A DNA stretch of 63,590 nucleotides from Escherichia phage ECP2304. The notes below the pieces were generated by a model, which did no database searches, was not told where the DNA came from, and saw only the letters and a program-made list of their open reading frames with translations. Shown here piece after piece: positions 1 to 63,590 of this stretch. The position numbers were made by a program, and so were the translations under genes. Within the stretch, counting starts at the first letter, position 1; each line of letters begins with the position of its first letter. The DNA is taken from sequence record OR880647.1; one strand, written 5' to 3'.

Positions 1-441
1 GAATAATTTATTCCTACTTGATAGAATAATGGAATCGGTACTCCAGAGCGCAAAAACCTAAAACTTTCAGTCAACAGACTAAAAACGGATAGAAACTAAA
101 AGTTAATAAGTAATAACATAAATATATATAAAATAAGGATTTATTAGTAATGTATATAGTACCTATTGGTATTATTTGAATGTTTTTGGGTCATTGTTAA
201 AAAGTCCCAAAACTCACAAAAAGTGAAAGAATACAATTCGTGACAGGATTGTTAATGGAATAAGGTGTATGGATATACAGTATTATTCCAGATTCCGGAA
301 TAATTGGAATAATGGAATAAATTATTGAACTATTGTGATCGGAAGGTATATCAAGCTATAATGCGCTTAATCGCGGGATATTGGAGGAGGACTTTATTGC
401 GCGGTTAACCGGACCAGTAGGAGGGCTGGCCCGGAAGTAGT

Positions 442-768
442 TTAGAGCTGTACAGGTGTGAAGTGGGCTAGCGTATCGTCGGACATAATACCCGACAGTT
501 TTTCGTTTACCCAGTCGGACCAAATGCTATCCGGTTCCTGGCGGTGCACAAACCAGATTTCGGATGTGCCTTCTTTGCGCATCGGTTGCACTTCTGCAAG
601 GAACTTGTCCTGCATAAGGCGCGTGAAGCAGACGCTGGTCATTGGAACCGGCTTTTCGTCTTTATTGTAATAAGGGACCAATATTTTATTTCCGAAGTCT
701 GCAACTTCATAAACTGTTCCTTTGCGAAGGCCTCTGATGTCAGTGTAAGAGCGGATGAACTTTTTCAT
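442..768 (-). CDS. hypothetical protein (108 aa)
   Basis: ATG start, clean ORF in minus-strand gene string inside repeat. Confidence 0.5.
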   Translation of the reverse strand: MKKFIRSYTDIRGLRKGTVYEVADFGNKILVPYYNKDEKPVPMTSVCFTRLMQDKFLAEVQPMRKEGTSEIWFVHRQEPDSIWSDWVNEKLSGIMSDDTLAHFTPVQL

Positions 769-770
769 AT

Positions 771-947
771 TTATTTCCTTACGAACACAGAGCCGACGAA
801 TAATGTTGATTGAGTTGCAGCTTGCTCGATTAATTCGCCAACAAGCTGGGACTGCGTCAGAGGTTTAAGGCCTTCTTTGGCGCGAGCTTCATTTACACGA
901 CGTTGAAGGTCTTTTAGGTATTGAGTTGCGAAACTATCTAATTGCAT
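771..947 (-). CDS. small hypothetical protein (58 aa)
   Basis: ATG at 945-947 preceded by AAGGA RBS; stop 771-773; below track size cutoff. Confidence 0.4.
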   Translation of the reverse strand: MQLDSFATQYLKDLQRRVNEARAKEGLKPLTQSQLVGELIEQAATQSTLFVGSVFVRK

Positions 948-996
948 CTTCTTATCCTTAGGGCTCCCGCAGAAGCCCGTTGAATGTGGTTATCGA

Positions 997-1146
997 CTAT
1001 AACGCTGCAAACATAAGCAGACGAATATTAACTGAAGTTTGGCTATTAAAGTCTTGACATTCTTTGATAATCTCTTCTTCACTTTTACCACTAAGTTTAG
1101 AATATTCTGTGATTGCTTGTTTTAATACAGAATCAAAATTGTTCAT
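997..1146 (-). CDS. small hypothetical protein (49 aa)
   Basis: ATG at 1144-1146 preceded by AAGGAGG RBS; translated by hand to TAG at 997-999. Confidence 0.45.
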   Translation of the reverse strand: MNNFDSVLKQAITEYSKLSGKSEEEIIKECQDFNSQTSVNIRLLMFAAL

Positions 1147-1156
1147 TTTATCCTCC

Positions 1157-1771
1157 TTATGCGTCCAGACCGTTGTATTTGCGCCAGGCGTAGAACTGAA
1201 TGGCGACAGTTGTTCCGTTGTAAGAAGGCATTGCAGCTTTCATCTCTTTCAGCGCCGGCGTGCGGCCCAGTTCCTTCAGAAGCTTGTCACCCATTGCCCA
1301 CACTTCGGCAGTTTTTCCTTTAAGGGGCTTGCGAGCGCCATTTTTGAAATCGCAGCGAGCAGCTTTTGCATCCTGTTTTGGAGCGGCAGCTTTTGGCTCT
1401 TCAATTTTGATTTCAGAAACCTGCGTGGCAGCTTTTGCGTGTTTCATATCTTTCTCTTCCTCCTGCTCCAAAGCTTTGAGGCAGCTTTTGACGATTTCCG
1501 GATTTACCATCGGGCGCAGTACCGAGGCGCTAGCAGCTGGAGCGGCGGTCGGTGCTGGGGCTTTCTGCTCCGGCTTTTGAGCTTTTTCGTGATCGCGCAG
1601 CACCTGAAGGACTTCCTTTTCGACGATGTAAAAACCGATATCGTCCTGATGGATAAGCTGTTCGTGTGCGTCGCGTGCAACCTGGCCCCAGCGAGTTTTC
1701 AGAGCGCGGCGTGCATTCGTTTTCATGGTGTAGCGCATTTTGTCCTGTTCGCGGTGAGTTACTTTAGACAT
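1157..1771 (-). CDS. hypothetical protein (204 aa), basic N-terminus and Ala/Pro-rich linker
   Basis: ATG at 1769-1771 preceded by AAAGGAG RBS; in-frame with track ORF 1157..1816. Confidence 0.6.
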   Translation of the reverse strand: MSKVTHREQDKMRYTMKTNARRALKTRWGQVARDAHEQLIHQDDIGFYIVEKEVLQVLRDHEKAQKPEQKAPAPTAAPAASASVLRPMVNPEIVKSCLKALEQEEEKDMKHAKAATQVSEIKIEEPKAAAPKQDAKAARCDFKNGARKPLKGKTAEVWAMGDKLLKELGRTPALKEMKAAMPSYNGTTVAIQFYAWRKYNGLDA

Positions 1772-1844
1772 GGTATAGCTCCTTTCGTTAATGTTAGTTT
1801 GCTTATTACTGCCCACCGTAATGATGAGCAGTGTATAAGAAAAC

Positions 1845-2093
1845 TTACTGCACGATTGCTACGAAATCGGCGGTTGCGATATCCATGCTTGCAAACGCTT
1901 TGACGGTGTAGCTGGTATCTGCCGCGGCGTTGAAGTCGCTCAGGAACTGTTGTACCGCGTGCTCATGGTTGAGCATTACGTCTACATTGCAGTCCCAGCT
2001 ATAAACCTTGCGCTGACCGAAACCTTTAACTGCAATACGCGCGCCTTTGGTGTTGGTTGGTGCCAAAAATTTGGTGACGATAGAAGTAGCCAT
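1845..2093 (-). CDS. hypothetical protein (82 aa)
   Basis: ATG with GAGGA RBS. Confidence 0.55.
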   Translation of the reverse strand: MATSIVTKFLAPTNTKGARIAVKGFGQRKVYSWDCNVDVMLNHEHAVQQFLSDFNAAADTSYTVKAFASMDIATADFVAIVQ

Positions 2094-2166
2094 GATGTAA
2101 TCCTCGTTTTGTTTAAGTTGACTTATTATTGCCCAGTCAGATCAACTAGGCAAGATATAAATCAGC

Positions 2167-2391
2167 TTATTTAACCATCAAGGCCCATCTTTTATAGCCG
2201 TTCAGCTCCATTCTATGACCGTGGTCGTTGCAGTAACGTTGGATATTATTAAAGTCGTTATCGTTCATATCGCTGACGTCAATATTAAAATAGTTGCGCT
2301 TTGCAGGTGTAACGTATTGGGATAACTGCATTGAGTACAGATGTTCAATGTTGTCGATAATAGCTTGCTGAACTTTAGTGATAGTAGCCAT
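2167..2391 (-). CDS. hypothetical protein (74 aa)
   Basis: Internal ATG at 2389-2391 preceded by GGAGGTG RBS; track ORF extends to 2451. Confidence 0.5.
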   Translation of the reverse strand: MATITKVQQAIIDNIEHLYSMQLSQYVTPAKRNYFNIDVSDMNDNDFNNIQRYCNDHGHRMELNGYKRWALMVK

Positions 2392-2781
2392 GATACACCT
2401 CCTAATGTGGTTAAGCAGTATTGCTTTGTTGAAGTAATAATAGCCTTGCATCGTGATATTGAATAGGCCAAACGTGCTATTTTGATATTGTTTTGCATCT
2501 AGTGAAAATCATGCTTGTATCGCATATTTAGCACTAATGGCCTAACTAACATCACACGATCTGGTCTACGCGCGTGCATACATACATATAAGGAGTGCCG
2601 GACAGGATCGGACCGACCAGGGGCGCTCAACCGTCTCTGTCCGTCCTGTAAGCTGGTCCCCGGACTGGTCCAAAATATTTTTATAAAAAGATGCAAAAAG
2701 GTGTAGACATATGATCAATCTAACCCTACTATATACACATACCGCAAGGGTACTACAAATTAACTTAAAGGGGTTTACATC

Positions 2782-2985
2782 ATGTCTATTCGTAGCGTTA
2801 TCTGTGTAATGGTTGCAAACAATAATTTTGGTTTCGTAGAAGGTGCAGAGTATAAAATGGATCTTAAGACTCGTTGCATTATTAAAGGTGAAGAGGAATG
2901 GCGTGCAGTGGTAGAAGATCGCGGCGATATCTACATCTATAGTTCTGATACAATGAAAACTATTGCCGTCTTCGAATTTAACTAA
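2782..2985 (+). CDS. hypothetical protein (67 aa)
   Basis: ATG with AAAGGGG RBS; first plus-strand gene after divergent intergenic region. Confidence 0.55.
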   Translation: MSIRSVICVMVANNNFGFVEGAEYKMDLKTRCIIKGEEEWRAVVEDRGDIYIYSSDTMKTIAVFEFN

Positions 2986-3053
2986 GCTAACTTATACAAT
3001 GGGCATTAGTACAGTGCCCATTAATAAGCTAACTAATTATAACGAGGTGTATT

Positions 3054-3239
3054 ATGTCTACGAACACTGTGAAGTCTGTAAATAATAGCAACAGAACATT
3101 TAAAGTTATCTATTATGGCGAATATATTGGAGACGTTACAGCTCCCAGCCGCATCGCTGCGGAAGACTTCGTCCGTACAGAGATGGAGCTTGGAATCGCC
3201 GATTTTGCAGCCATTATCGAACTGGTAGAGGTATTCTGA
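3054..3239 (+). CDS. hypothetical protein (61 aa)
   Basis: ATG with GAGGTG RBS. Confidence 0.5.
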   Translation: MSTNTVKSVNNSNRTFKVIYYGEYIGDVTAPSRIAAEDFVRTEMELGIADFAAIIELVEVF

Positions 3240-3240
3240 T

Positions 3241-3381
3241 ATGCAACGCAAATACACGCTTACACGCGCACAGCACGCGTTATTGATTGCAGCTATGCGC
3301 GCAGAATATGCAGTACACGGCTGGCATAGCGCCATGATGCGAGGTAAAAGCATATATGCAGACATATGCTCGCAAGAATAA
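3241..3381 (+). CDS. small hypothetical protein (46 aa)
   Basis: TGAtATG coupling to upstream gene; hand-translated to TAA at 3379-3381. Confidence 0.35.
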   Translation: MQRKYTLTRAQHALLIAAMRAEYAVHGWHSAMMRGKSIYADICSQE

Positions 3382-3944
3382 CGCACACAGCAGCACCACA
3401 GCGAGCTAAAGCTCAAAGGTAATGGTAATGCATTACCAACACACAATAAGCACGCTGTACCCAGCAAAGCGGCGCTAATTTCAACACTCACAGGCTGTAC
3501 GTTAACGCGTACGGCCTGCTCTGCTATATGCACGCCATGTATATAGCCAGCTCACAATGCACATCAATATAATTACGAATGAAATGGATTCGTCTGGAAG
3601 AATAACAATTCTTACAGTCACAGACCGGTCCAATGAGCCAACTCATAGACCCCACCTAGGATCATCAGGGTACTAATAATCACCCGAGGGCCCTTATCCA
3701 TCCTGATAGTAAGTGCTTGCCTAAATCTTACCCATCACTTTACTATCCACATACATCCATGACCCCACCTACCTTCTTTTTGAATATATTGCGCTCATCC
3801 TTTCTAAATATATGGATTTTGGTAGTAAATTCTGAGTCGTCAACGTATAATCCGTCTTGTAGCTGCCCCATAGCTACCATCTTTAAGCGGATGCAACCAA
3901 TTTCTATCAATTCTCACCAGTTTTAGAGCATCAAGGAGGTATTT

Positions 3945-4196
3945 ATGTGCGACTCCAGCGCAAGCACCACGACAAACTCCTCCAGCAATGTGGTTACAGA
4001 GGTAAATGCAATGCGATTAGGTCCATATCGCGGCTATTATGGTCGTGCTGCATGGAATGACGCTACTCAACGTTTTGAAGGCTGGATTATCTGCCCGGAA
4101 CGTGTTAAATTTCACTCCGTAAAAGAGAAAAACATCGTTCTTAATTTTCAAAAATGTGTCACTAAATATGTAGAGGAGCAAGAAGAATGCGTGTAG
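3945..4196 (+). CDS. hypothetical protein (83 aa)
   Basis: AAGGAGG RBS, ATG start. Confidence 0.6.
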   Translation: MCDSSASTTTNSSSNVVTEVNAMRLGPYRGYYGRAAWNDATQRFEGWIICPERVKFHSVKEKNIVLNFQKCVTKYVEEQEECV

Positions 4197-4438
4197 GGGA
4201 GGGTGAAAAGGTTGTCAACTATTTCGGGACTCAGGTTATAGTACCTGCCTGGGTTAACTGGCTCGCGGTTGATGAGTGTGAAGAGCTCTATGCTTATGAA
4301 AATGAGCCTTATATAGACGAATGCGACGATTACGACAAATGGTATGAGGATACGGGTAAATCCATCTTTATCGGCAAGTTTCCTTTCGAAGAAGGTTGTT
4401 GGGTAAATTCTTTAGTTAATGTTAGTTCGGAGGCTTAA
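4187..4438 (+). CDS. hypothetical protein, member of 3-copy paralog family
   Basis: Shares VPxWVxWLAxD...YxxExEP motif with 42828..43127(-) and 5013..5309. Confidence 0.6.
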   Translation: MRVGEGEKVVNYFGTQVIVPAWVNWLAVDECEELYAYENEPYIDECDDYDKWYEDTGKSIFIGKFPFEEGCWVNSLVNVSSEA

Positions 4439-4717
4439 ATGCTTGTAGAAGAGATTGTTGAAGGTAAAGAGTATCGTTTACTGACCGATATTGGTGGTGT
4501 TGGGTATGCTCCGGGCGATGGTGTTGAGTTCCGGGAACTGAAAGCTGGTTCTATTGTTACTGTTAATAAGGTGGTGTTTGATCTGCATAGCCTTTTCGGG
4601 CAGTGGAACCATACTGTAATTGTTAGCCAGGGTAGCGATGAATACGATGAAGAAGAGGATGCTTACGAAATCAGTTATACTGGTCTTGTAGGCGCCAATT
4701 TCCTGGAAGAAGTATAA
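4439..4717 (+). CDS. hypothetical protein (92 aa)
   Basis: Start overlaps upstream stop (TAAATG); clean ORF. Confidence 0.55.
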   Translation: MLVEEIVEGKEYRLLTDIGGVGYAPGDGVEFRELKAGSIVTVNKVVFDLHSLFGQWNHTVIVSQGSDEYDEEEDAYEISYTGLVGANFLEEV

Positions 4718-4767
4718 TTATCAATCTATAATGGGCTCTACGGAGCCCTTAATTATCTGGAGGAGAT

Positions 4768-5010
4768 GTGTTTCCGCGGAATGGTTTAAAGTGGACCGCA
4801 AGGGATCTTGCTTTGCTAAAGGTCAACGCTGGCAAGATTTCGGCGGAAGAAATAGCTTACTATCTTAGAAGAGACGTTGAATCTGTACATATCAAAGCAA
4901 GTAGGCTAAAGTTGTCCTTAGTAACAAACAGGTGCAAGCGCGGGCACGAACGGGTATACCGCAAAGGGCGCTGGCGCTGCAATGAATGTCGTAAACTTAA
5001 AGGGTACTGA
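4768..5010 (+). CDS. hypothetical zinc-ribbon protein (CxxGH...CxxC)
   Basis: GTG start after GGAGGAG; C-terminal CKRGH..RCNEC motif resembles N-terminal zinc module of the HNH protein at 38512..39069. Confidence 0.45.
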   Translation: MFPRNGLKWTARDLALLKVNAGKISAEEIAYYLRRDVESVHIKASRLKLSLVTNRCKRGHERVYRKGRWRCNECRKLKGY

Positions 5011-5012
5011 CT

Positions 5013-5309
5013 ATGTTGTATTTAGGAATGGATGAAACTGGACACGAAATTCCTTCTGTTAGCAAAGAGACGCAAGTATTTACCGACCATTATGGGTCTA
5101 CTATCCCTGTTGAGCCTTGGGCTAAATTTGTGGCTGTAGACGCAGATGGTAAAGTTCATTGCTATGACGGAAAACCTTATTCCTATAAAGCTGGTAGGCA
5201 ATGGATGATTGGTTGTGATGGTACAAAAGTTCGTTACTGCGGTGAAGTTGACCTTGAAGGTATGGACTGGCGTGATACTCTAATGGAGATTAAACATGTC
5301 CGCGGCTGA
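5013..5309 (+). CDS. hypothetical protein, member of 3-copy paralog family
   Basis: Shares VPxW..AVD and EVDLEGMDW motifs with 42828..43127(-). Confidence 0.6.
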   Translation: MLYLGMDETGHEIPSVSKETQVFTDHYGSTIPVEPWAKFVAVDADGKVHCYDGKPYSYKAGRQWMIGCDGTKVRYCGEVDLEGMDWRDTLMEIKHVRG

Positions 5310-5385
5310 AGTTACGACATTTATAATAGCTTTTGCGGTTGCTTTATTTCTTCTAGCTAAGTTAGATTTATTTATTTGGTGACTT

Positions 5386-5610
5386 ATGCGGTTACTTATG
5401 GTTATTGGCGTTATAATTGCCGCTTTCGTCATATTTGCAATGGTGGACTCTAAAGAAATGGAGCGGCAAAATTGTCAACGTACTGGTAACAGCCGGGATG
5501 ATATCATTTGGCAATATATTTACGATGCAAAAGGTAATGTTATGTCAATGTATCCTCAGGTTATTACTGAGTATGAATATAAATGCAATGACCGTAACAG
5601 GTGGAGATAA
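5386..5610 (+). CDS. hypothetical membrane protein (74 aa)
   Basis: N-terminal hydrophobic helix. Confidence 0.5.
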   Translation: MRLLMVIGVIIAAFVIFAMVDSKEMERQNCQRTGNSRDDIIWQYIYDAKGNVMSMYPQVITEYEYKCNDRNRWR

Positions 5611-5612
5611 TA

Positions 5613-5885
5613 ATGGAAGTTACTGAAGCTGCTAAACGCATGGTGAAATTCTATGTTGGTTCTGATTCACCTTTAATCCGCGCTTTTGGGCAAGAGCTTT
5701 ATATATTTCAAGGAGAAAGAGAAGAAGCTGAAGATGTTGCTCAGAAGATTCTTGATTTACAAGAAAAAGCTAAACGGGCGGATGCCCTGGAATCTGTAGC
5801 AAAGGACTTCCTGCGTCGTAATAAATATGGTCCTTTGTTCTACCGTGATTTGTATAATCGTTTTAAGGAGATTTTAGGTGATTGA
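5613..5885 (+). CDS. hypothetical protein (90 aa)
   Basis: ATG at 5613 after GGAG; overlaps upstream stop (TAATGG). Confidence 0.55.
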   Translation: MEVTEAAKRMVKFYVGSDSPLIRAFGQELYIFQGEREEAEDVAQKILDLQEKAKRADALESVAKDFLRRNKYGPLFYRDLYNRFKEILGD

Positions 5886-5939
5886 ACAAGAGCTCTTACA
5901 CTGGAAAGATTTCATTAAAGAAATGCTAGGAGACAAATA

Positions 5940-6410
5940 ATGGCTGACGTTAAAACTATTGTTGATGCAATGGACGAATCCAAAGACTGCCAACTGAAGA
6001 AGTCGTTTGAGGTAAAACAGGTTACAGAAACGCAGTTGATAGCCAACTTTGCGCGTTATTGCGGATTGGGTCGCGGGAAGGACTGGAATGGGCTTATTGT
6101 TATGCCCACATCACAGATCCTTGTCTATGTCCGTAATGTTGTAGAAGATCTTTTACGTCTTCAAATAGATATTGGTGACGTAGAAATTAACATGACCGCG
6201 AGCTCCACCATTGTGGTTAAATGGCAGTCGGGCGAGACCCTTCGTTTGGAAGCGTGTCATTGTGCTAAGAGCTTGCACCACCTGCGCGGTTGTCACTACC
6301 AGTTTGTTGGGTTTGTGCATCTACAAGGGTTAAGCGGGCGTACGGCGATGGTAGCGCGTTTGCTGCTGCGTCCTTATAATAACGAGCCGGAAGTCATATA
6401 CGAGGCATAA
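5940..6410 (+). CDS. hypothetical protein (156 aa)
   Basis: Clean ORF with RBS. Confidence 0.6.
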   Translation: MADVKTIVDAMDESKDCQLKKSFEVKQVTETQLIANFARYCGLGRGKDWNGLIVMPTSQILVYVRNVVEDLLRLQIDIGDVEINMTASSTIVVKWQSGETLRLEACHCAKSLHHLRGCHYQFVGFVHLQGLSGRTAMVARLLLRPYNNEPEVIYEA

Positions 6411-6411
6411 G

Positions 6412-6834
6412 ATGATTAAACACGTCAAGCAACCAACATTGAATACATGCGTTTCTGCGTGTCTAGCAATGATTCTTAATAGACCTGTAGAAGAAGTAAT
6501 TGCGGAATTTCATGATCGATATTACAACAATTGGGAAATAACAATTTCCGAATATCTAGTACAAAACAACGTTGACCACATCTGTTCTGTAGGCGGTGGG
6601 CGTGAAACTATATACATGGGTGGTTTGTTTTTGTGCACTGTCCCAAGTCTCAATGTTCCTGGAGCACTGCATCAGGTTGTGATCGATACAACTAATCACA
6701 AGTTTATTGTACATGACCCGATTAAAGGTTGGGAAGGTAAAAAGTTCTACGTTGGCCCGGATCAAGATCCTGAACAGCCAGGAGCATTTATCATTCATAC
6801 TTGGGTTAAAGACGTTGAGATTGTGCTTAATTAA
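6412..6834 (+). CDS. putative papain-like cysteine peptidase (C39-like)
   Basis: N-terminal QPTLNTCVSACLAMIL resembles the Q...C(G)xACLAMI catalytic-Cys motif of peptidase C39; downstream His residues present. Confidence 0.45.
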   Translation: MIKHVKQPTLNTCVSACLAMILNRPVEEVIAEFHDRYYNNWEITISEYLVQNNVDHICSVGGGRETIYMGGLFLCTVPSLNVPGALHQVVIDTTNHKFIVHDPIKGWEGKKFYVGPDQDPEQPGAFIIHTWVKDVEIVLN

Positions 6835-41756: not shown

Positions 41757-42479
41757 TCAAACGTGTTTGCTGTAAGCGTTATCCATAAATTCGCTGTACC
41801 CTTTAGCACGTAGTTTGCACGCAGGACATTCACCGCAACCATATCCCCAGTCATGCAGAGTGCGACGGACGCCGTTATAGCAAGTATGGGACTGTTCAAT
41901 TACTGTGGTTAAGAAACCAACCTTATCCGCTAGCTCAAACGTTTCTGCTTTATTTAAACGCATAAGCGGGGTAACGAAATGAATATCTGTTTCATATCCA
42001 ACGTTTAACGTAGCTTCAAGCAAGTCTACAAACTGCTGGCGGCAATCTGGATAACCGCTATAGTCTGTTTCACAAACGCCCGTAACCACATATCGGGCGC
42101 CAACTTTCTGTGCGTAGGCGTGCGCGGTAGTCAGGAAAAGAGCATTACGGTTTGGCACAAAGCTTGCCGGAAGGTTGTTGTGCTGTTCGTGATGTTCGTT
42201 AACATCACCTTCGTCCCCGATTAAAGCGCTATTCCCAATCTGTTTCAAAGCAGGTAATTCAAAGACAACAAATGGGACATCGTGCTCTTTACAAATTTGA
42301 TTAGCACAAGCCAGCTCAATGTTATGACGTTGACCGTATGCAAAACCAATAGCGTAAACCTTATCATAGTTATTAAGTGCAAGACCTAAACAGGTCACGC
42401 TGTCCTGGCCGCCAGACAGGACGACAACGGCGGAGTTATGATTTTTTACAGGGAACACCAGTTTATCTAATTTATTCAT
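41757..42479 (-). CDS. queC: 7-cyano-7-deazaguanine synthase
   Basis: PP-loop SGGQDS; C-terminal zinc Cys cluster CGECPAC; ATG at 42477-42479. Confidence 0.8.
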   Translation of the reverse strand: MNKLDKLVFPVKNHNSAVVVLSGGQDSVTCLGLALNNYDKVYAIGFAYGQRHNIELACANQICKEHDVPFVVFELPALKQIGNSALIGDEGDVNEHHEQHNNLPASFVPNRNALFLTTAHAYAQKVGARYVVTGVCETDYSGYPDCRQQFVDLLEATLNVGYETDIHFVTPLMRLNKAETFELADKVGFLTTVIEQSHTCYNGVRRTLHDWGYGCGECPACKLRAKGYSEFMDNAYSKHV

Positions 42480-42480
42480 C

Positions 42481-42669
42481 TTAGAACCCTTTAAGGCTAA
42501 TATTAAGATTAACGACCACTTGTTCAACTACATCATCAGATGTCATCTGACGCTTATGAATTTCAAGCTCCGAATGTATGTTCTTTGATGCAGCACGACA
42601 GATAGCGTCATTCAGCTCGTCTTGTAAACGTTGCATCTTCTGCATAAGAATCACAGTTTCTTCATTCAT
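42481..42669 (-). CDS. hypothetical protein, tandem paralog A (62 aa)
   Basis: Similar to adjacent 42662..42874 product. Confidence 0.5.
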   Translation of the reverse strand: MNEETVILMQKMQRLQDELNDAICRAASKNIHSELEIHKRQMTSDDVVEQVVVNLNISLKGF

Positions 42670-42874
42670 CTTCTACACCTTTAATATCACAAGGATTAAT
42701 TGTTACATTTGACATCACAATTGGATGATTGCGTGCCCCGATTGTGCTAACGTGATTAATATCTAATTCTACATGCACGCCCTGCATGGTAGCGTGAGCA
42801 ATTGCAGAATTAAGTTTTTCTACCAGCTCAGTGATCATTTCCTGATGCTGTTTCGCTTCTTCCAAAGTGATCAT
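42662..42874 (-). CDS. hypothetical protein, tandem paralog B (70 aa)
   Basis: GAAGGTGA RBS; similar to 42481..42669 product. Confidence 0.5.
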   Translation of the reverse strand: MITLEEAKQHQEMITELVEKLNSAIAHATMQGVHVELDINHVSTIGARNHPIVMSNVTINPCDIKGVEDE

Positions 42875-43127
42875 TTCTTTTCACCTTCACTAATGTTTGT
42901 TTATAATCCATACCTTCAAGGTCAACTTCTGCCATTTCACAAAAGTTATTATCCTCCCAGTATGGTGTCCATTTAGTTTGACCATCCCTCAATGTTGGCT
43001 CATACTCGAATCCATAAATTGTACCGTCTTGATCCGTAGCTAGCCACCATACCCATTCAGGGACATCAAGCTTATTGCCAAAATATTCAACTTCTTTAGT
43101 ATGCACAACCTGACTTAACACACGCAT
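42828..43127 (-). CDS. hypothetical protein, third member of paralog family
   Basis: Shares motifs with 4187..4438 and 5013..5309. Confidence 0.55.
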   Translation of the reverse strand: MRVLSQVVHTKEVEYFGNKLDVPEWVWWLATDQDGTIYGFEYEPTLRDGQTKWTPYWEDNNFCEMAEVDLEGMDYKQTLVKVKRNDHFGRSETASGNDH

Positions 43128-43834
43128 TATTCCACCCCGATATATTTGTGAACCTGAAGCTGCAATGTGTACCCGTGTTTCATACAGCTTTGGACAACCG
43201 CTTGAATGTTACTGTGGTTAAGATCTTCATCCTGCTCGTCCATTGGCTGTAAATATATCTTACCCTTGAACCCCTTCGGAGGTCTAGCGATAAATGGCGT
43301 AGCCTGATGATCTAATGCTTGAAGAGGTAAACCATCTTCCACGTTTACACAGCACGCTTTAAGTACATATTTAAATGCATTAGCGCGGTACAGCACAGAA
43401 GGATGAATCTTTGAGGTCTTAGGACTACATACAATCACAGGCAACTGGGAAAAGTTCTTAGGTAAAGGCATAGACCCATTAGTTTCAATTTGCACCAAAT
43501 AGCCGCGCGATAACAGTTGTTGAATAAACGGGTTAATTTGCTGACGGAACGGTTCACCCCCAGTAATAACCACAAGTGAGGTGCTATTGCCTGATTCCAG
43601 CTTACGGCTTTCAATTAAACGCATGATATCAACAATGTGATATTTGGTGCGACCGTTGGTATAGTCAGTATCACAGCCCGGACATTGCAGGTTACACCCA
43701 GCAAGACGCACAAATACAGCAGGCTGGCCGCAGAATGGCCCTTCACCTTGAATGGTAGAGAATACCGAATGCACGTCTAAATACATATCGTTTTCTTTAG
43801 AACGAGACTCGGGAGCTTGTTGATTAATATTCAT
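43127..43834 (-). CDS. queE: 7-carboxy-7-deazaguanine synthase (radical SAM)
   Basis: TIQGEG, CNLQCPGCDT cluster, ITGGEP, ETNG; AGAGGA RBS. Confidence 0.8.
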   Translation of the reverse strand: MNINQQAPESRSKENDMYLDVHSVFSTIQGEGPFCGQPAVFVRLAGCNLQCPGCDTDYTNGRTKYHIVDIMRLIESRKLESGNSTSLVVITGGEPFRQQINPFIQQLLSRGYLVQIETNGSMPLPKNFSQLPVIVCSPKTSKIHPSVLYRANAFKYVLKACCVNVEDGLPLQALDHQATPFIARPPKGFKGKIYLQPMDEQDEDLNHSNIQAVVQSCMKHGYTLQLQVHKYIGVE

Positions 43835-59787: not shown

Positions 59788-60336
59788 ACCCTAACACCCA
59801 AATCCCGACTGTTAGTAAAAAACGTATATAAATCAATAGCATAGATACTAAATGAATAGTGATTGGAATGGGTAGAAATCCAAATGATGGAAGTGGAATA
59901 ATTTATTCCTACTTGATAGAATAATGGAATCGGTACTCCAGAGCGCAAAAACCTAAAACTTTCAGTCAACAGACTAAAAACGGATAGAAACTAAAAGTTA
60001 ATAAGTAATAACATAAATATATATAAAATAAGGATTTATTAGTAATGTATATAGTACCTATTGGTATTATTTGAATGTTTTTGGGTCATTGTTAAAAAGT
60101 CCCAAAACTCACAAAAAGTGAAAGAATACAATTCGTGACAGGATTGTTAATGGAATAAGGTGTATGGATATACAGTATTATTCCAGATTCCGGAATAATT
60201 GGAATAATGGAATAAATTATTGAACTATTGTGATCGGAAGGTATATCAAGCTATAATGCGCTTAATCGCGGGATATTGGAGGAGGACTTTATTGCGCGGT
60301 TAACCGGACCAGTAGGAGGGCTGGCCCGGAAGTAGT

Positions 60337-60663
60337 TTAGAGCTGTACAGGTGTGAAGTGGGCTAGCGTATCGTCGGACATAATACCCGACAGTTTTTCG
60401 TTTACCCAGTCGGACCAAATGCTATCCGGTTCCTGGCGGTGCACAAACCAGATTTCGGATGTGCCTTCTTTGCGCATCGGTTGCACTTCTGCAAGGAACT
60501 TGTCCTGCATAAGGCGCGTGAAGCAGACGCTGGTCATTGGAACCGGCTTTTCGTCTTTATTGTAATAAGGGACCAATATTTTATTTCCGAAGTCTGCAAC
60601 TTCATAAACTGTTCCTTTGCGAAGGCCTCTGATGTCAGTGTAAGAGCGGATGAACTTTTTCAT
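60337..60663 (-). CDS. hypothetical protein (repeat copy of 442..768)
   Basis: Identical duplicate in right repeat. Confidence 0.5.
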   Translation of the reverse strand: MKKFIRSYTDIRGLRKGTVYEVADFGNKILVPYYNKDEKPVPMTSVCFTRLMQDKFLAEVQPMRKEGTSEIWFVHRQEPDSIWSDWVNEKLSGIMSDDTLAHFTPVQL

Positions 60664-60665
60664 AT

Positions 60666-60842
60666 TTATTTCCTTACGAACACAGAGCCGACGAATAATG
60701 TTGATTGAGTTGCAGCTTGCTCGATTAATTCGCCAACAAGCTGGGACTGCGTCAGAGGTTTAAGGCCTTCTTTGGCGCGAGCTTCATTTACACGACGTTG
60801 AAGGTCTTTTAGGTATTGAGTTGCGAAACTATCTAATTGCAT
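60666..60842 (-). CDS. small hypothetical protein (repeat copy of 771..947)
   Basis: Identical duplicate. Confidence 0.4.
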   Translation of the reverse strand: MQLDSFATQYLKDLQRRVNEARAKEGLKPLTQSQLVGELIEQAATQSTLFVGSVFVRK

Positions 60843-60891
60843 CTTCTTATCCTTAGGGCTCCCGCAGAAGCCCGTTGAATGTGGTTATCGA

Positions 60892-61041
60892 CTATAACGC
60901 TGCAAACATAAGCAGACGAATATTAACTGAAGTTTGGCTATTAAAGTCTTGACATTCTTTGATAATCTCTTCTTCACTTTTACCACTAAGTTTAGAATAT
61001 TCTGTGATTGCTTGTTTTAATACAGAATCAAAATTGTTCAT
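60892..61041 (-). CDS. small hypothetical protein (repeat copy of 997..1146)
   Basis: Identical duplicate. Confidence 0.45.
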   Translation of the reverse strand: MNNFDSVLKQAITEYSKLSGKSEEEIIKECQDFNSQTSVNIRLLMFAAL

Positions 61042-61051
61042 TTTATCCTCC

Positions 61052-61666
61052 TTATGCGTCCAGACCGTTGTATTTGCGCCAGGCGTAGAACTGAATGGCG
61101 ACAGTTGTTCCGTTGTAAGAAGGCATTGCAGCTTTCATCTCTTTCAGCGCCGGCGTGCGGCCCAGTTCCTTCAGAAGCTTGTCACCCATTGCCCACACTT
61201 CGGCAGTTTTTCCTTTAAGGGGCTTGCGAGCGCCATTTTTGAAATCGCAGCGAGCAGCTTTTGCATCCTGTTTTGGAGCGGCAGCTTTTGGCTCTTCAAT
61301 TTTGATTTCAGAAACCTGCGTGGCAGCTTTTGCGTGTTTCATATCTTTCTCTTCCTCCTGCTCCAAAGCTTTGAGGCAGCTTTTGACGATTTCCGGATTT
61401 ACCATCGGGCGCAGTACCGAGGCGCTAGCAGCTGGAGCGGCGGTCGGTGCTGGGGCTTTCTGCTCCGGCTTTTGAGCTTTTTCGTGATCGCGCAGCACCT
61501 GAAGGACTTCCTTTTCGACGATGTAAAAACCGATATCGTCCTGATGGATAAGCTGTTCGTGTGCGTCGCGTGCAACCTGGCCCCAGCGAGTTTTCAGAGC
61601 GCGGCGTGCATTCGTTTTCATGGTGTAGCGCATTTTGTCCTGTTCGCGGTGAGTTACTTTAGACAT
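61052..61666 (-). CDS. hypothetical protein (repeat copy of 1157..1771)
   Basis: Identical duplicate. Confidence 0.6.
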   Translation of the reverse strand: MSKVTHREQDKMRYTMKTNARRALKTRWGQVARDAHEQLIHQDDIGFYIVEKEVLQVLRDHEKAQKPEQKAPAPTAAPAASASVLRPMVNPEIVKSCLKALEQEEEKDMKHAKAATQVSEIKIEEPKAAAPKQDAKAARCDFKNGARKPLKGKTAEVWAMGDKLLKELGRTPALKEMKAAMPSYNGTTVAIQFYAWRKYNGLDA

Positions 61667-61739
61667 GGTATAGCTCCTTTCGTTAATGTTAGTTTGCTTA
61701 TTACTGCCCACCGTAATGATGAGCAGTGTATAAGAAAAC

Positions 61740-61988
61740 TTACTGCACGATTGCTACGAAATCGGCGGTTGCGATATCCATGCTTGCAAACGCTTTGACG
61801 GTGTAGCTGGTATCTGCCGCGGCGTTGAAGTCGCTCAGGAACTGTTGTACCGCGTGCTCATGGTTGAGCATTACGTCTACATTGCAGTCCCAGCTATAAA
61901 CCTTGCGCTGACCGAAACCTTTAACTGCAATACGCGCGCCTTTGGTGTTGGTTGGTGCCAAAAATTTGGTGACGATAGAAGTAGCCAT
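61740..61988 (-). CDS. hypothetical protein (repeat copy of 1845..2093)
   Basis: Identical duplicate. Confidence 0.55.
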   Translation of the reverse strand: MATSIVTKFLAPTNTKGARIAVKGFGQRKVYSWDCNVDVMLNHEHAVQQFLSDFNAAADTSYTVKAFASMDIATADFVAIVQ

Positions 61989-62061
61989 GATGTAATCCTC
62001 GTTTTGTTTAAGTTGACTTATTATTGCCCAGTCAGATCAACTAGGCAAGATATAAATCAGC

Positions 62062-62286
62062 TTATTTAACCATCAAGGCCCATCTTTTATAGCCGTTCAG
62101 CTCCATTCTATGACCGTGGTCGTTGCAGTAACGTTGGATATTATTAAAGTCGTTATCGTTCATATCGCTGACGTCAATATTAAAATAGTTGCGCTTTGCA
62201 GGTGTAACGTATTGGGATAACTGCATTGAGTACAGATGTTCAATGTTGTCGATAATAGCTTGCTGAACTTTAGTGATAGTAGCCAT
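62062..62286 (-). CDS. hypothetical protein (repeat copy of 2167..2391)
   Basis: Identical duplicate. Confidence 0.5.
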   Translation of the reverse strand: MATITKVQQAIIDNIEHLYSMQLSQYVTPAKRNYFNIDVSDMNDNDFNNIQRYCNDHGHRMELNGYKRWALMVK

Positions 62287-62676
62287 GATACACCTCCTAA
62301 TGTGGTTAAGCAGTATTGCTTTGTTGAAGTAATAATAGCCTTGCATCGTGATATTGAATAGGCCAAACGTGCTATTTTGATATTGTTTTGCATCTAGTGA
62401 AAATCATGCTTGTATCGCATATTTAGCACTAATGGCCTAACTAACATCACACGATCTGGTCTACGCGCGTGCATACATACATATAAGGAGTGCCGGACAG
62501 GATCGGACCGACCAGGGGCGCTCAACCGTCTCTGTCCGTCCTGTAAGCTGGTCCCCGGACTGGTCCAAAATATTTTTATAAAAAGATGCAAAAAGGTGTA
62601 GACATATGATCAATCTAACCCTACTATATACACATACCGCAAGGGTACTACAAATTAACTTAAAGGGGTTTACATC

Positions 62677-62880
62677 ATGTCTATTCGTAGCGTTATCTGT
62701 GTAATGGTTGCAAACAATAATTTTGGTTTCGTAGAAGGTGCAGAGTATAAAATGGATCTTAAGACTCGTTGCATTATTAAAGGTGAAGAGGAATGGCGTG
62801 CAGTGGTAGAAGATCGCGGCGATATCTACATCTATAGTTCTGATACAATGAAAACTATTGCCGTCTTCGAATTTAACTAA
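62677..62880 (+). CDS. hypothetical protein (repeat copy of 2782..2985)
   Basis: Identical duplicate. Confidence 0.55.
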   Translation: MSIRSVICVMVANNNFGFVEGAEYKMDLKTRCIIKGEEEWRAVVEDRGDIYIYSSDTMKTIAVFEFN

Positions 62881-62948
62881 GCTAACTTATACAATGGGCA
62901 TTAGTACAGTGCCCATTAATAAGCTAACTAATTATAACGAGGTGTATT

Positions 62949-63134
62949 ATGTCTACGAACACTGTGAAGTCTGTAAATAATAGCAACAGAACATTTAAAG
63001 TTATCTATTATGGCGAATATATTGGAGACGTTACAGCTCCCAGCCGCATCGCTGCGGAAGACTTCGTCCGTACAGAGATGGAGCTTGGAATCGCCGATTT
63101 TGCAGCCATTATCGAACTGGTAGAGGTATTCTGA
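62949..63134 (+). CDS. hypothetical protein (repeat copy of 3054..3239)
   Basis: Identical duplicate. Confidence 0.5.
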   Translation: MSTNTVKSVNNSNRTFKVIYYGEYIGDVTAPSRIAAEDFVRTEMELGIADFAAIIELVEVF

Positions 63135-63135
63135 T

Positions 63136-63276
63136 ATGCAACGCAAATACACGCTTACACGCGCACAGCACGCGTTATTGATTGCAGCTATGCGCGCAGA
63201 ATATGCAGTACACGGCTGGCATAGCGCCATGATGCGAGGTAAAAGCATATATGCAGACATATGCTCGCAAGAATAA
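63136..63276 (+). CDS. small hypothetical protein (repeat copy of 3241..3381)
   Basis: Identical duplicate. Confidence 0.35.
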   Translation: MQRKYTLTRAQHALLIAAMRAEYAVHGWHSAMMRGKSIYADICSQE

Positions 63277-63590
63277 CGCACACAGCAGCACCACAGCGAG
63301 CTAAAGCTCAAAGGTAATGGTAATGCATTACCAACACACAATAAGCACGCTGTACCCAGCAAAGCGGCGCTAATTTCAACACTCACAGGCTGTACGTTAA
63401 CGCGTACGGCCTGCTCTGCTATATGCACGCCATGTATATAGCCAGCTCACAATGCACATCAATATAATTACGAATGAAATGGATTCGTCTGGAAGAATAA
63501 CAATTCTTACAGTCACAGACCGGTCCAATGAGCCAACTCATAGACCCCACCTAGGATCATCAGGGTACTAATAATCACCCGAGGGCCCTT

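Follow-up and report, generated by a model that had tools for sequence, protein, structure and literature searches.

Escherichia phage ECP2304 encodes one kind of small acidic protein three times, and one of the copies lies directly beside a gene for 7-deazaguanine DNA modification. Does this protein belong to the modification machinery, or do the three genes represent something else? We addressed this question on sequence record OR880647.1, taken as one stretch of 63,590 nucleotides (the window). The genes are c1 (4187..4438, plus strand; 83 amino acids (aa), isoelectric point (pI) 4.05, net charge about -13.5), c2 (5013..5309, plus strand; 98 aa, pI 5.22, with a 16-aa N-terminal extension) and c3 (42828..43127, minus strand; 99 aa, pI 4.61, with the domain in residues 1-84, 42876..43127). 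We show that they are real protein-coding paralogs of one 75-85-residue, acidic, all-beta domain. Taken jointly, that the genes are true paralogs, that their family is found in phages only, that the copies behave as cassettes and that the adjacency to queE is incidental is a picture of which we are very confident. For the function of the domain, the best reading is a non-enzymatic acidic binding or adaptor module for host takeover or anti-defence; it is drawn by analogy, and we favour it tentatively, at somewhat less than an even chance.

The paralogy had been proposed from shared motifs, and the open reading frames (ORFs) indeed lie at the coordinates and on the strands of that original prediction. 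BLASTP aligned c1 with c3 (E = 5e-10, 47% identity over 36 aa), c2 with c3 (E = 3e-12, 29% identity over 70 aa) and c1 with c2 (E = 2e-6). Smith-Waterman scores of the three pairs were 8.0, 13.3 and 17.1 standard deviations above those of 2,000 shuffles, and the observed score was reached by 0 shuffles, so that all three pairs are significant against this control (z = 8-17). Moreover, all three proteins match the hidden Markov model (HMM) of phrog_1972 (c1 residues 8-80, E = 7e-16; c2 residues 4-97, E = 2.4e-25; c3 residues 2-86, E = 2.1e-21), and c1 and c3 share a predicted strand order. The relationship therefore stands, and the motifs behind it hold in part: EVDLEGMD(W/Y)xxTL is common to c2 and c3, as had been said, and VP(A/E)W-x-W-LA... 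is exact in c1 and c3, whereas c2 reads VEPWAKFVAVD...HCYDGKP. Plausible ribosome-binding sites precede c1 (GAGGAG) and c3 (GGGGTGG). HMMs built from 3 and from 115 sequences found no fourth copy at E < 1 when run on every stop-to-stop ORF of 30 aa or more in the six frames of this genome; across the genus, the family copy number is 1 to 3.

AlphaFold2 predicts five beta strands for c3 (predicted local distance difference test (pLDDT) 78.5, predicted template modelling score (pTM) 0.67) and the same five-strand order for c1 (pLDDT 84.3, pTM 0.72). The C-terminal tail of c3 (residues 86-94) falls below a pLDDT of 50. Among 115 aligned family sequences, the columns conserved at 90% or more are, in c3 numbering, G17, A30, D32, G35, P44, W53, L70, W75 and L79. 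The window copies hold most of these positions, the exceptions being a Y at W75 in c3 and the absence of G35 and L70 from c1. Near-invariant Gly, Ala, Pro, Trp and Leu with one Asp in a D-x-x-G turn have the look of a scaffold, not of a catalytic set. All three proteins are negatively charged (net charge -5 to -13.5), and the median pI of the family is 4.66. The top Foldseek matches, none of them significant, were small beta-barrels (SH3-like, Sso7d, Sm, LytTR), folds that resemble the domain in being small and, as predicted for it, five-stranded and beta. No solved structural relative was found in sequence and fold searches of the PDB. The fold matches in BFVD are phage proteins without known function (query-normalised template modelling score about 0.5-0.74, E down to 6e-8). 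One of them, the 187-aa A0A2I6PFU7 of Proteus phage phiP4-3, is labelled DUF4314-containing, and 0 of the 115 family members match the DUF4314 Pfam model.

The family is already catalogued as phrog_1972 (PHROGs v4, 'unknown function'), of which the window genes are members; weaker matches were obtained to phrog_23941, 11307, 21375, 26007, 15430, 19703 and 15048. Paralogy itself is hence no discovery, since near-identical orthologs are in GenBank and the databases already contain the proteins as hypothetical phrog_1972 members. The Seuratvirus orthologs are entered as hypothetical proteins, with the exception of one 'antitoxin HicB' label on the c1 ortholog of phage CSP1C. A mapping of the family to a known domain of unrelated function would have spoken against the original prediction, and none emerged: Pfam gave no match for the three proteins even at E <= 1 and no family-level match for the 115 members, and NCBIfam and PADLOC gave no family-level match either. 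Our search of the literature on phrog_1972 and on Queuovirinae anti-defence genes found nothing on this family.

The family is very large. A word-indexed search returned 35 close relatives, none of them named. With a profile, run exhaustively over 1.84 billion cluster representatives (clusters at 50% identity), we obtained 1,796 representatives at E <= 1e-3, 290 of them at E <= 1e-10. By tblastn, the domain is present in 199 GenBank phage records, which include Queuovirinae, Klebsiella siphoviruses, jumbo phages (CBB, GAP32, BF), phAPEC8-like myoviruses and ~77-kb Escherichia podoviruses; among the matches listed, the underlying features are hypothetical or unannotated. BFVD adds T4-like phages of Vibrio, Aeromonas and Acinetobacter, Escherichia phages IME11 and EP335, and Bcep781 gp28. 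Every genomic context examined was a phage-like contig with the gene inside a unidirectional run of small ORFs, and the usual neighbours are genes of DNA or nucleotide metabolism (NUDIX, RNA ligase, DenV, DHFR, RdgC, NinG, PD-(D/E)XK, single-stranded DNA-binding protein). The term phage-only refers to these phage records and contigs; bacterial genomes and prophages were not surveyed. The value of the analysis lies in this family picture of ~1,800 clusters, in phage-like contexts only, with no Pfam model and no solved structure.

The copy next to queE bears most directly on the question of DNA modification. The 7-deazaguanine genes lie on the minus-strand arm in the same order as in phage CAjan (DpdA, FolE, QueD, preQ0 transporter, QueC, two small ORFs, QueE), and c3 is flanked by QueC (Pfam E = 9e-75) and the radical-SAM QueE. 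Its upstream neighbour is queE (7-carboxy-7-deazaguanine synthase; 43127..43834, minus strand), to which it is translationally coupled by an ATAATG stop-start overlap. The small-ORF interval that holds c3 is bounded downstream by queC (41757..42527, minus strand); both que genes are context and not members of the family. In comparison with CAjan, an insertion of exactly 253 bp has placed c3 after the queE stop and before the start codon (ATG) of the small gene that follows, with the ATAATG overlap preserved. The CAjan slot is empty, the gp44 ortholog coming immediately after queE. The c3 allele lacks its own stop codon: its reading frame runs on for 47 nt within the following gene, out of frame with it (42828..42874), and its residues 85-99 are a 15-aa read-through tail outside the domain.

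The same slot is occupied differently in related phages. Seurat carries an allele (Seurat42, 84 aa) that is 49% identical to c3 and closes with a TAA of its own directly before the next ATG (TAAATG). Its flanks and its 5'-most ~46 nt differ hardly at all from those of the window. We counted occupancy in the 33 Seuratvirus records with queE at >= 92% nucleotide identity. The c3 allele (allele A) is present in 7 of the 33, and a further copy, at 71%, is found in Salmonella phage STP-SP5. Another 14 Seuratvirus records match only the conserved 5' 46 nt of c3, and a match limited to this segment indicates a second allele (allele B) in them. Overall, the slot is filled by a family member in ~21 of the 33 records and is empty in the remaining records, about a third.

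These data weigh on the suggestion, made in the original prediction, that c3 is a modification-associated factor. Such a protein, perhaps a chaperone of QueE, QueC or DpdA or an adaptor for one of them, would help to make or insert 7-deazaguanine, and the coupling of c3 to queE, its place between queE and queC and the filling of the slot in some two thirds of the records (~21 of 33) can be cited in its favour. However, CAjan DNA is experimentally dPreQ0-modified (PMC6884629, PMC8594841). Since CAjan makes dPreQ0 DNA without c3, a modification role is not supported. The accepted pathway comprises FolE, QueD, QueE, QueC and DpdA only and is complete with these (PMC8594841). Conserved co-occurrence with the pathway was likewise not found, as CAjan has all of it and no family member in the cluster. 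Further, the two slot alleles are only 49% identical, a c3-like allele (60% identical) on metagenomic contig L011 lies in a plus-strand small-ORF array and not beside queE, and the 9g copies of the family are near a primase gene and not near que genes. Most homologs found by tblastn and in BFVD belong to phages, such as Klebsiella siphoviruses and jumbo, rV5-like or N4-like phages, in which no que gene is annotated beside the match. A modification-associated factor is thus very unlikely. From these comparisons the queE-side position appears to be one insertion slot with no functional link to 7-deazaguanine synthesis, which removes a tempting wrong inference, namely that a small ORF beside queE is a member of the pathway.

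Insertion at a gene boundary is also what we found for c1. This gene is a 252-bp insertion relative to CAjan and SeppeHuegi, and the c1 cassette is bordered on both sides by a near-direct 10-bp repeat: the left junction carries ATGCGTGTAG (4187..4196, plus strand), a 10-mer that also begins CAjan gp77, and the right junction carries ATGCTTGTAG (4439..4448, plus strand), the start of the downstream gene. c1 is present in 6 of the 33 Seuratvirus records, and its slot in Seurat and slur01 holds another family allele plus an unrelated gene. The junctions suggest that cassettes may be swapped via recombination at shared gene-start sequences. We also observed that c1, c3 (43119..43127, minus strand) and CAjan gp77 have a common start, ATGCGTGT (Met-Arg-Val). 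Taken together, the genome comparisons show that the Seuratvirus copies behave as gene-sized accessory cassettes in fixed slots between conserved genes, apparently inserted, lost or replaced by divergent alleles via gene-boundary recombination.

Do the cassettes then benefit the phage at all? They might be selfish or near-neutral, persisting through easy recombination into gene-boundary slots. Exactly gene-sized insertions and deletions with microhomology at the junctions, patchy presence, and a c3 allele that tolerates a lost stop codon and a 15-aa junk tail would all agree with this. The second copy, c2, does not. The CAjan gp78 ortholog and the core copy of the genus, it occurs in 33 of 33 Seuratvirus records at 82-86% nucleotide identity and is under purifying selection (omega 0.21-0.46, compared with 0.03-0.28 across all neighbouring genes). 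Its protein is 78-79% identical to the orthologs, versus 93-99% for most neighbouring genes, and its dN is 0.12-0.13 versus 0.006-0.06 in most of them. From omega and dN together, c2 is a genuine gene, constrained by purifying selection and evolving at several times the rate of its surroundings. Beyond c2, the scaffold is conserved over 1,796 clusters from many phage lineages, no attached nuclease or recombinase is there to mobilise the genes, and intragenic arrays of up to 9 units are kept as open reading frames. We therefore consider purely selfish or near-neutral cassettes improbable.

The replacements in c2 are not spread evenly. They concentrate in residues 52-72, between the conserved Pro and the last long strand, where 10 of 21 residues differ, and a sliding NG86 analysis gave pN/pS of 0.63-0.82 for these codons versus 0.14-0.39 elsewhere. 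This pattern suggests that residues 52-72 may form a specificity loop.

In the wider family, the domain is used singly, in series and in fusions. Among the best 150 representatives, 97 contain the domain once, 32 twice and 11 three times, and the other 10 contain four to nine copies. Representative P0040 consists of five clean repeats, and P0036 and P0037, with eight repeats each, are products of adjacent genes on one 62-kb contig. On this phage-like metagenome-assembled contig (JAWVGY010000536.1, L016; 7001..11418), the adjacent genes encode 794 aa and 678 aa, with 16 repeats running. Other representatives join repeats to enzymes of the deoxynucleoside triphosphate (dNTP) pool: P0039 has five repeats and a MazG-like pyrophosphatase (phrog_1992, E = 1.4e-31), P0054 a MazZ-type dGTP_diPhyd_N domain with three repeats, and P0046 and P0116 repeats with dCMP deaminase.

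Fusions of this kind raise the possibility of a nucleotide- or small-molecule-binding module, which as a solo protein would be a sponge for a nucleotide, nucleobase or immune signal and in fusions a regulatory or substrate-capturing domain. The known phage sponges Tad1, Tad2 and Acb2 are likewise small proteins. Three kinds of dNTP-pool enzyme (MazG-like, MazZ-N, dCMP deaminase) were joined independently, one copy lies inside the deazaguanine cluster, and near-invariant Trp53 and Trp75 with conserved aromatics could make a stacking pocket. Against this, dNTP-pool enzymes occur in only 4 of ~53 multi-domain representatives, and as such enzymes are frequent neighbours in the early regions of phages, the fusions may be accidents of location. 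Among the 115 sequences, no basic or polar residues that could line a pocket are conserved, neither sequence nor structure searches matched a solved sponge or nucleotide-binding fold, and the hypervariability of the alleles is harder to explain with an invariant ligand. On balance, we regard nucleotide or small-molecule binding as unlikely, if less so than selfish persistence.

The binding or adaptor module is preferred because it accounts for a conserved scaffold with one variable loop, for the presence of more than one divergent copy in a genome, and for allele turnover between near-identical phages, early-type placement, and arrays and fusions. The 'diversified binding module' of the original prediction fits the same results: no catalytic-type conservation, acidity, substitutions in one loop, allele loss or replacement, and again arrays and fusions. 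Under such a mechanism, a conserved beta scaffold would carry a variable loop, located after the conserved Pro and before the last long strand, and each paralog would bind a different host (or phage) protein stoichiometrically. Binding would aid host takeover or block a defence. As many as nine modules could further be joined in one array, or the module could be added to dNTP-pool enzymes as a targeting or adaptor domain. Several points weigh against this reading. Its mechanism is argued by analogy with early phage proteins that are likewise small, acidic and hypervariable. Nucleotide binding, or simply gene neighbourhood, might instead lie behind the recurrent fusions to dNTP-pool enzymes. 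In a promoter scan of the region, promoter-like sites were not enriched (8 found versus 11.7 expected) and no cassette-specific promoter or terminator was detected, so 'early' comes from gene order alone. Finally, we do not claim positive selection on the c2 loop, as pN/pS is <1 and the data amount to essentially one independent allele contrast.

A bolder version of the binding module, which is possible though we consider it doubtful, is that the family constitutes a major, so far undescribed 'adaptor/inhibitor' domain of phages. Its five beta strands would form an acidic module with a hypervariable loop for specificity, deployed as singles, as polyvalent arrays of up to nine and as fusions to dNTP-pool enzymes, and the module would bind and neutralise host proteins, possibly those of nucleotide-depleting or DNA-sensing defences. 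If true, copy number and alleles in near-identical Seuratviruses would set which defences each isolate escapes. Acidity, a variable loop, allele replacement and loss, multiple diverged copies and tandem arrays are the host-interaction or anti-defence hallmarks of the family. Such cassettes account for nearly all the differences between natural Seuratvirus isolates (1 copy in CAjan, 3 in the present phage), and BASEL phages Bas21-26 are available; this natural variation therefore offers a ready-made genetic system for assigning a phenotype.

With regard to the genome as a whole, the two ends of the window are identical (1-3695 = 59896-63590, 3695/3695 bases). The window is hence a 59,895-bp genome read past an arbitrary start, and features in the first 3.7 kb are present twice. 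A megablast search with 3900-6500 matched 33 phage records, nearly all of them Escherichia Seuratviruses; the closest relative was Escherichia phage RCIP0359 (94%), and CSP1, Seurat, slur01 and CAjan were also matched. A 166-aa minus-strand ORF at 3033..3533, called mechanically, looks spurious. Several short plus-strand ORFs with ribosome-binding sites lie in 2500..3945, with starts near 2783, 3055 and 3242, and would correspond to the CAjan gp71-75 small-gene array. With these ORFs, the plus-strand arm begins near 2700, past the divergent intergenic region.

The c1 slot lies between two genes with CAjan orthologs. Upstream is a conserved 83-aa gene (3945..4196, plus strand; CAjan gp76 ortholog, phrog_24875) with a 10-nt overlap with c1. 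It has a weak HicB-like match (phrog_9151, E = 0.0045), and its label in CSP1C, 'RNA-binding protein Hfq', is unsupported. Downstream is a 92-aa gene (4439..4717, plus strand; CAjan gp77 ortholog, phrog_27099), which is mosaic and falls into two allele classes, being 96-97% identical at the aa level to CAjan and RCIP0359 and 65-70% to SeppeHuegi, Seurat and slur01. It is followed by a terminator-like hairpin (4733..4748), just upstream of an 80-aa, very basic ORF (4768..5010, plus strand; pI 10.5) that is another cassette: it is 100% identical and unannotated in CSP1C and absent at the CAjan, RCIP0359, SeppeHuegi, Seurat and slur01 loci. Its weak matches are to phrog_323, 'transcriptional regulator, D5-like' (E = 2.4e-6), and to Pfam HVO_A0114 (E = 0.012). 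Farther along, a 140-aa gene (6412..6834, plus strand) is mosaic too, with dS above 1 versus all five relatives, compared with 0.05-0.7 for the genes around the 92-aa and 140-aa genes. On the other arm, two acidic small ORFs of 70 aa (42662..42874) and 62 aa (42481..42669), both on the minus strand, separate c3 from queC. They are apparently paralogs of each other (BLASTP E = 7e-5; common L..LN.AI..A...IH.EL.I) and are conserved in CAjan (gp44, gp43) and Seurat. RefSeq names the 70-aa protein 'radical SAM domain-containing protein', and it has no Pfam match.

Two specific identities had to be considered for the family. The first is distant homology to the type I-C anti-CRISPR AcrIC9, the top PDB sequence match for two family profiles (E = 0.19 and 0.55), with an ungapped alignment of 37-47 residues through the YFG...D.DG..Y..P region. 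AcrIC9 is, like the window proteins, small and acidic; it binds Cas7 of Cascade and has the fold b1-b2-a1-b3-a2-a3 (PMC10478522). We rejected this homology: hhalign, with 24 AcrIC9 homologs aligned, gave a probability of 1.4%, sequence E-values were 0.19-0.63, the AcrIC9 fold is not all-beta, and the invariant residues differ. Common descent of the two has next to no chance of being correct. The second is the 'antitoxin HicB' label of the CSP1C c1 ortholog (PQ202980.1), which we also rejected, as there is no Pfam match at E <= 1 and no HicB among the PDB-sequence or listed fold matches. The same record names neighbouring tiny ORFs 'Hfq', 'ATPase' and 'ATP-binding protein', which is implausible.

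How does the domain compare with what is already described? With phrog_1972 the window proteins align over essentially the whole domain, and there is no difference at the family level. That entry gives neither a function nor a structure nor a description, so that membership says nothing of the mechanism; the tandem arrays and enzyme fusions were found in the present analysis. As genetic elements, the copies recall phage morons, accessory cassettes exchanged at gene boundaries in the mosaic-genome model of Hendrix and colleagues. The likeness consists in exact gene-sized insertions and deletions, junction microhomology, retained translational coupling and alternative alleles per slot. Classic morons, usually reported from temperate phages, bring a promoter and a terminator with them, whereas the window cassettes, in a virulent phage, lie within operons and lack such signals. 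DNA mimics of the Ocr, ArdA and Arn type are acidic, as are the window proteins (pI 4.05-5.22), and the domain has no sequence or fold match to any solved mimic. T7 Ocr, Gp2 and Gp5.9, T4 Arn and anti-CRISPRs such as AcrIC9 are small acidic early proteins that bind host proteins or defences stoichiometrically and so inhibit them. The window genes resemble such inhibitors (Ocr, Gp2, Gp5.9, Arn, AcrIC9) in size, negative charge, lack of enzymatic motifs, early-type placement among small ORFs and a patchy, fast-replaced distribution among close relatives. No sequence or fold relation to them is detectable, and the window domain is set apart from these named inhibitors by being all-beta, strung in tandem up to nine times and fused to enzymes.

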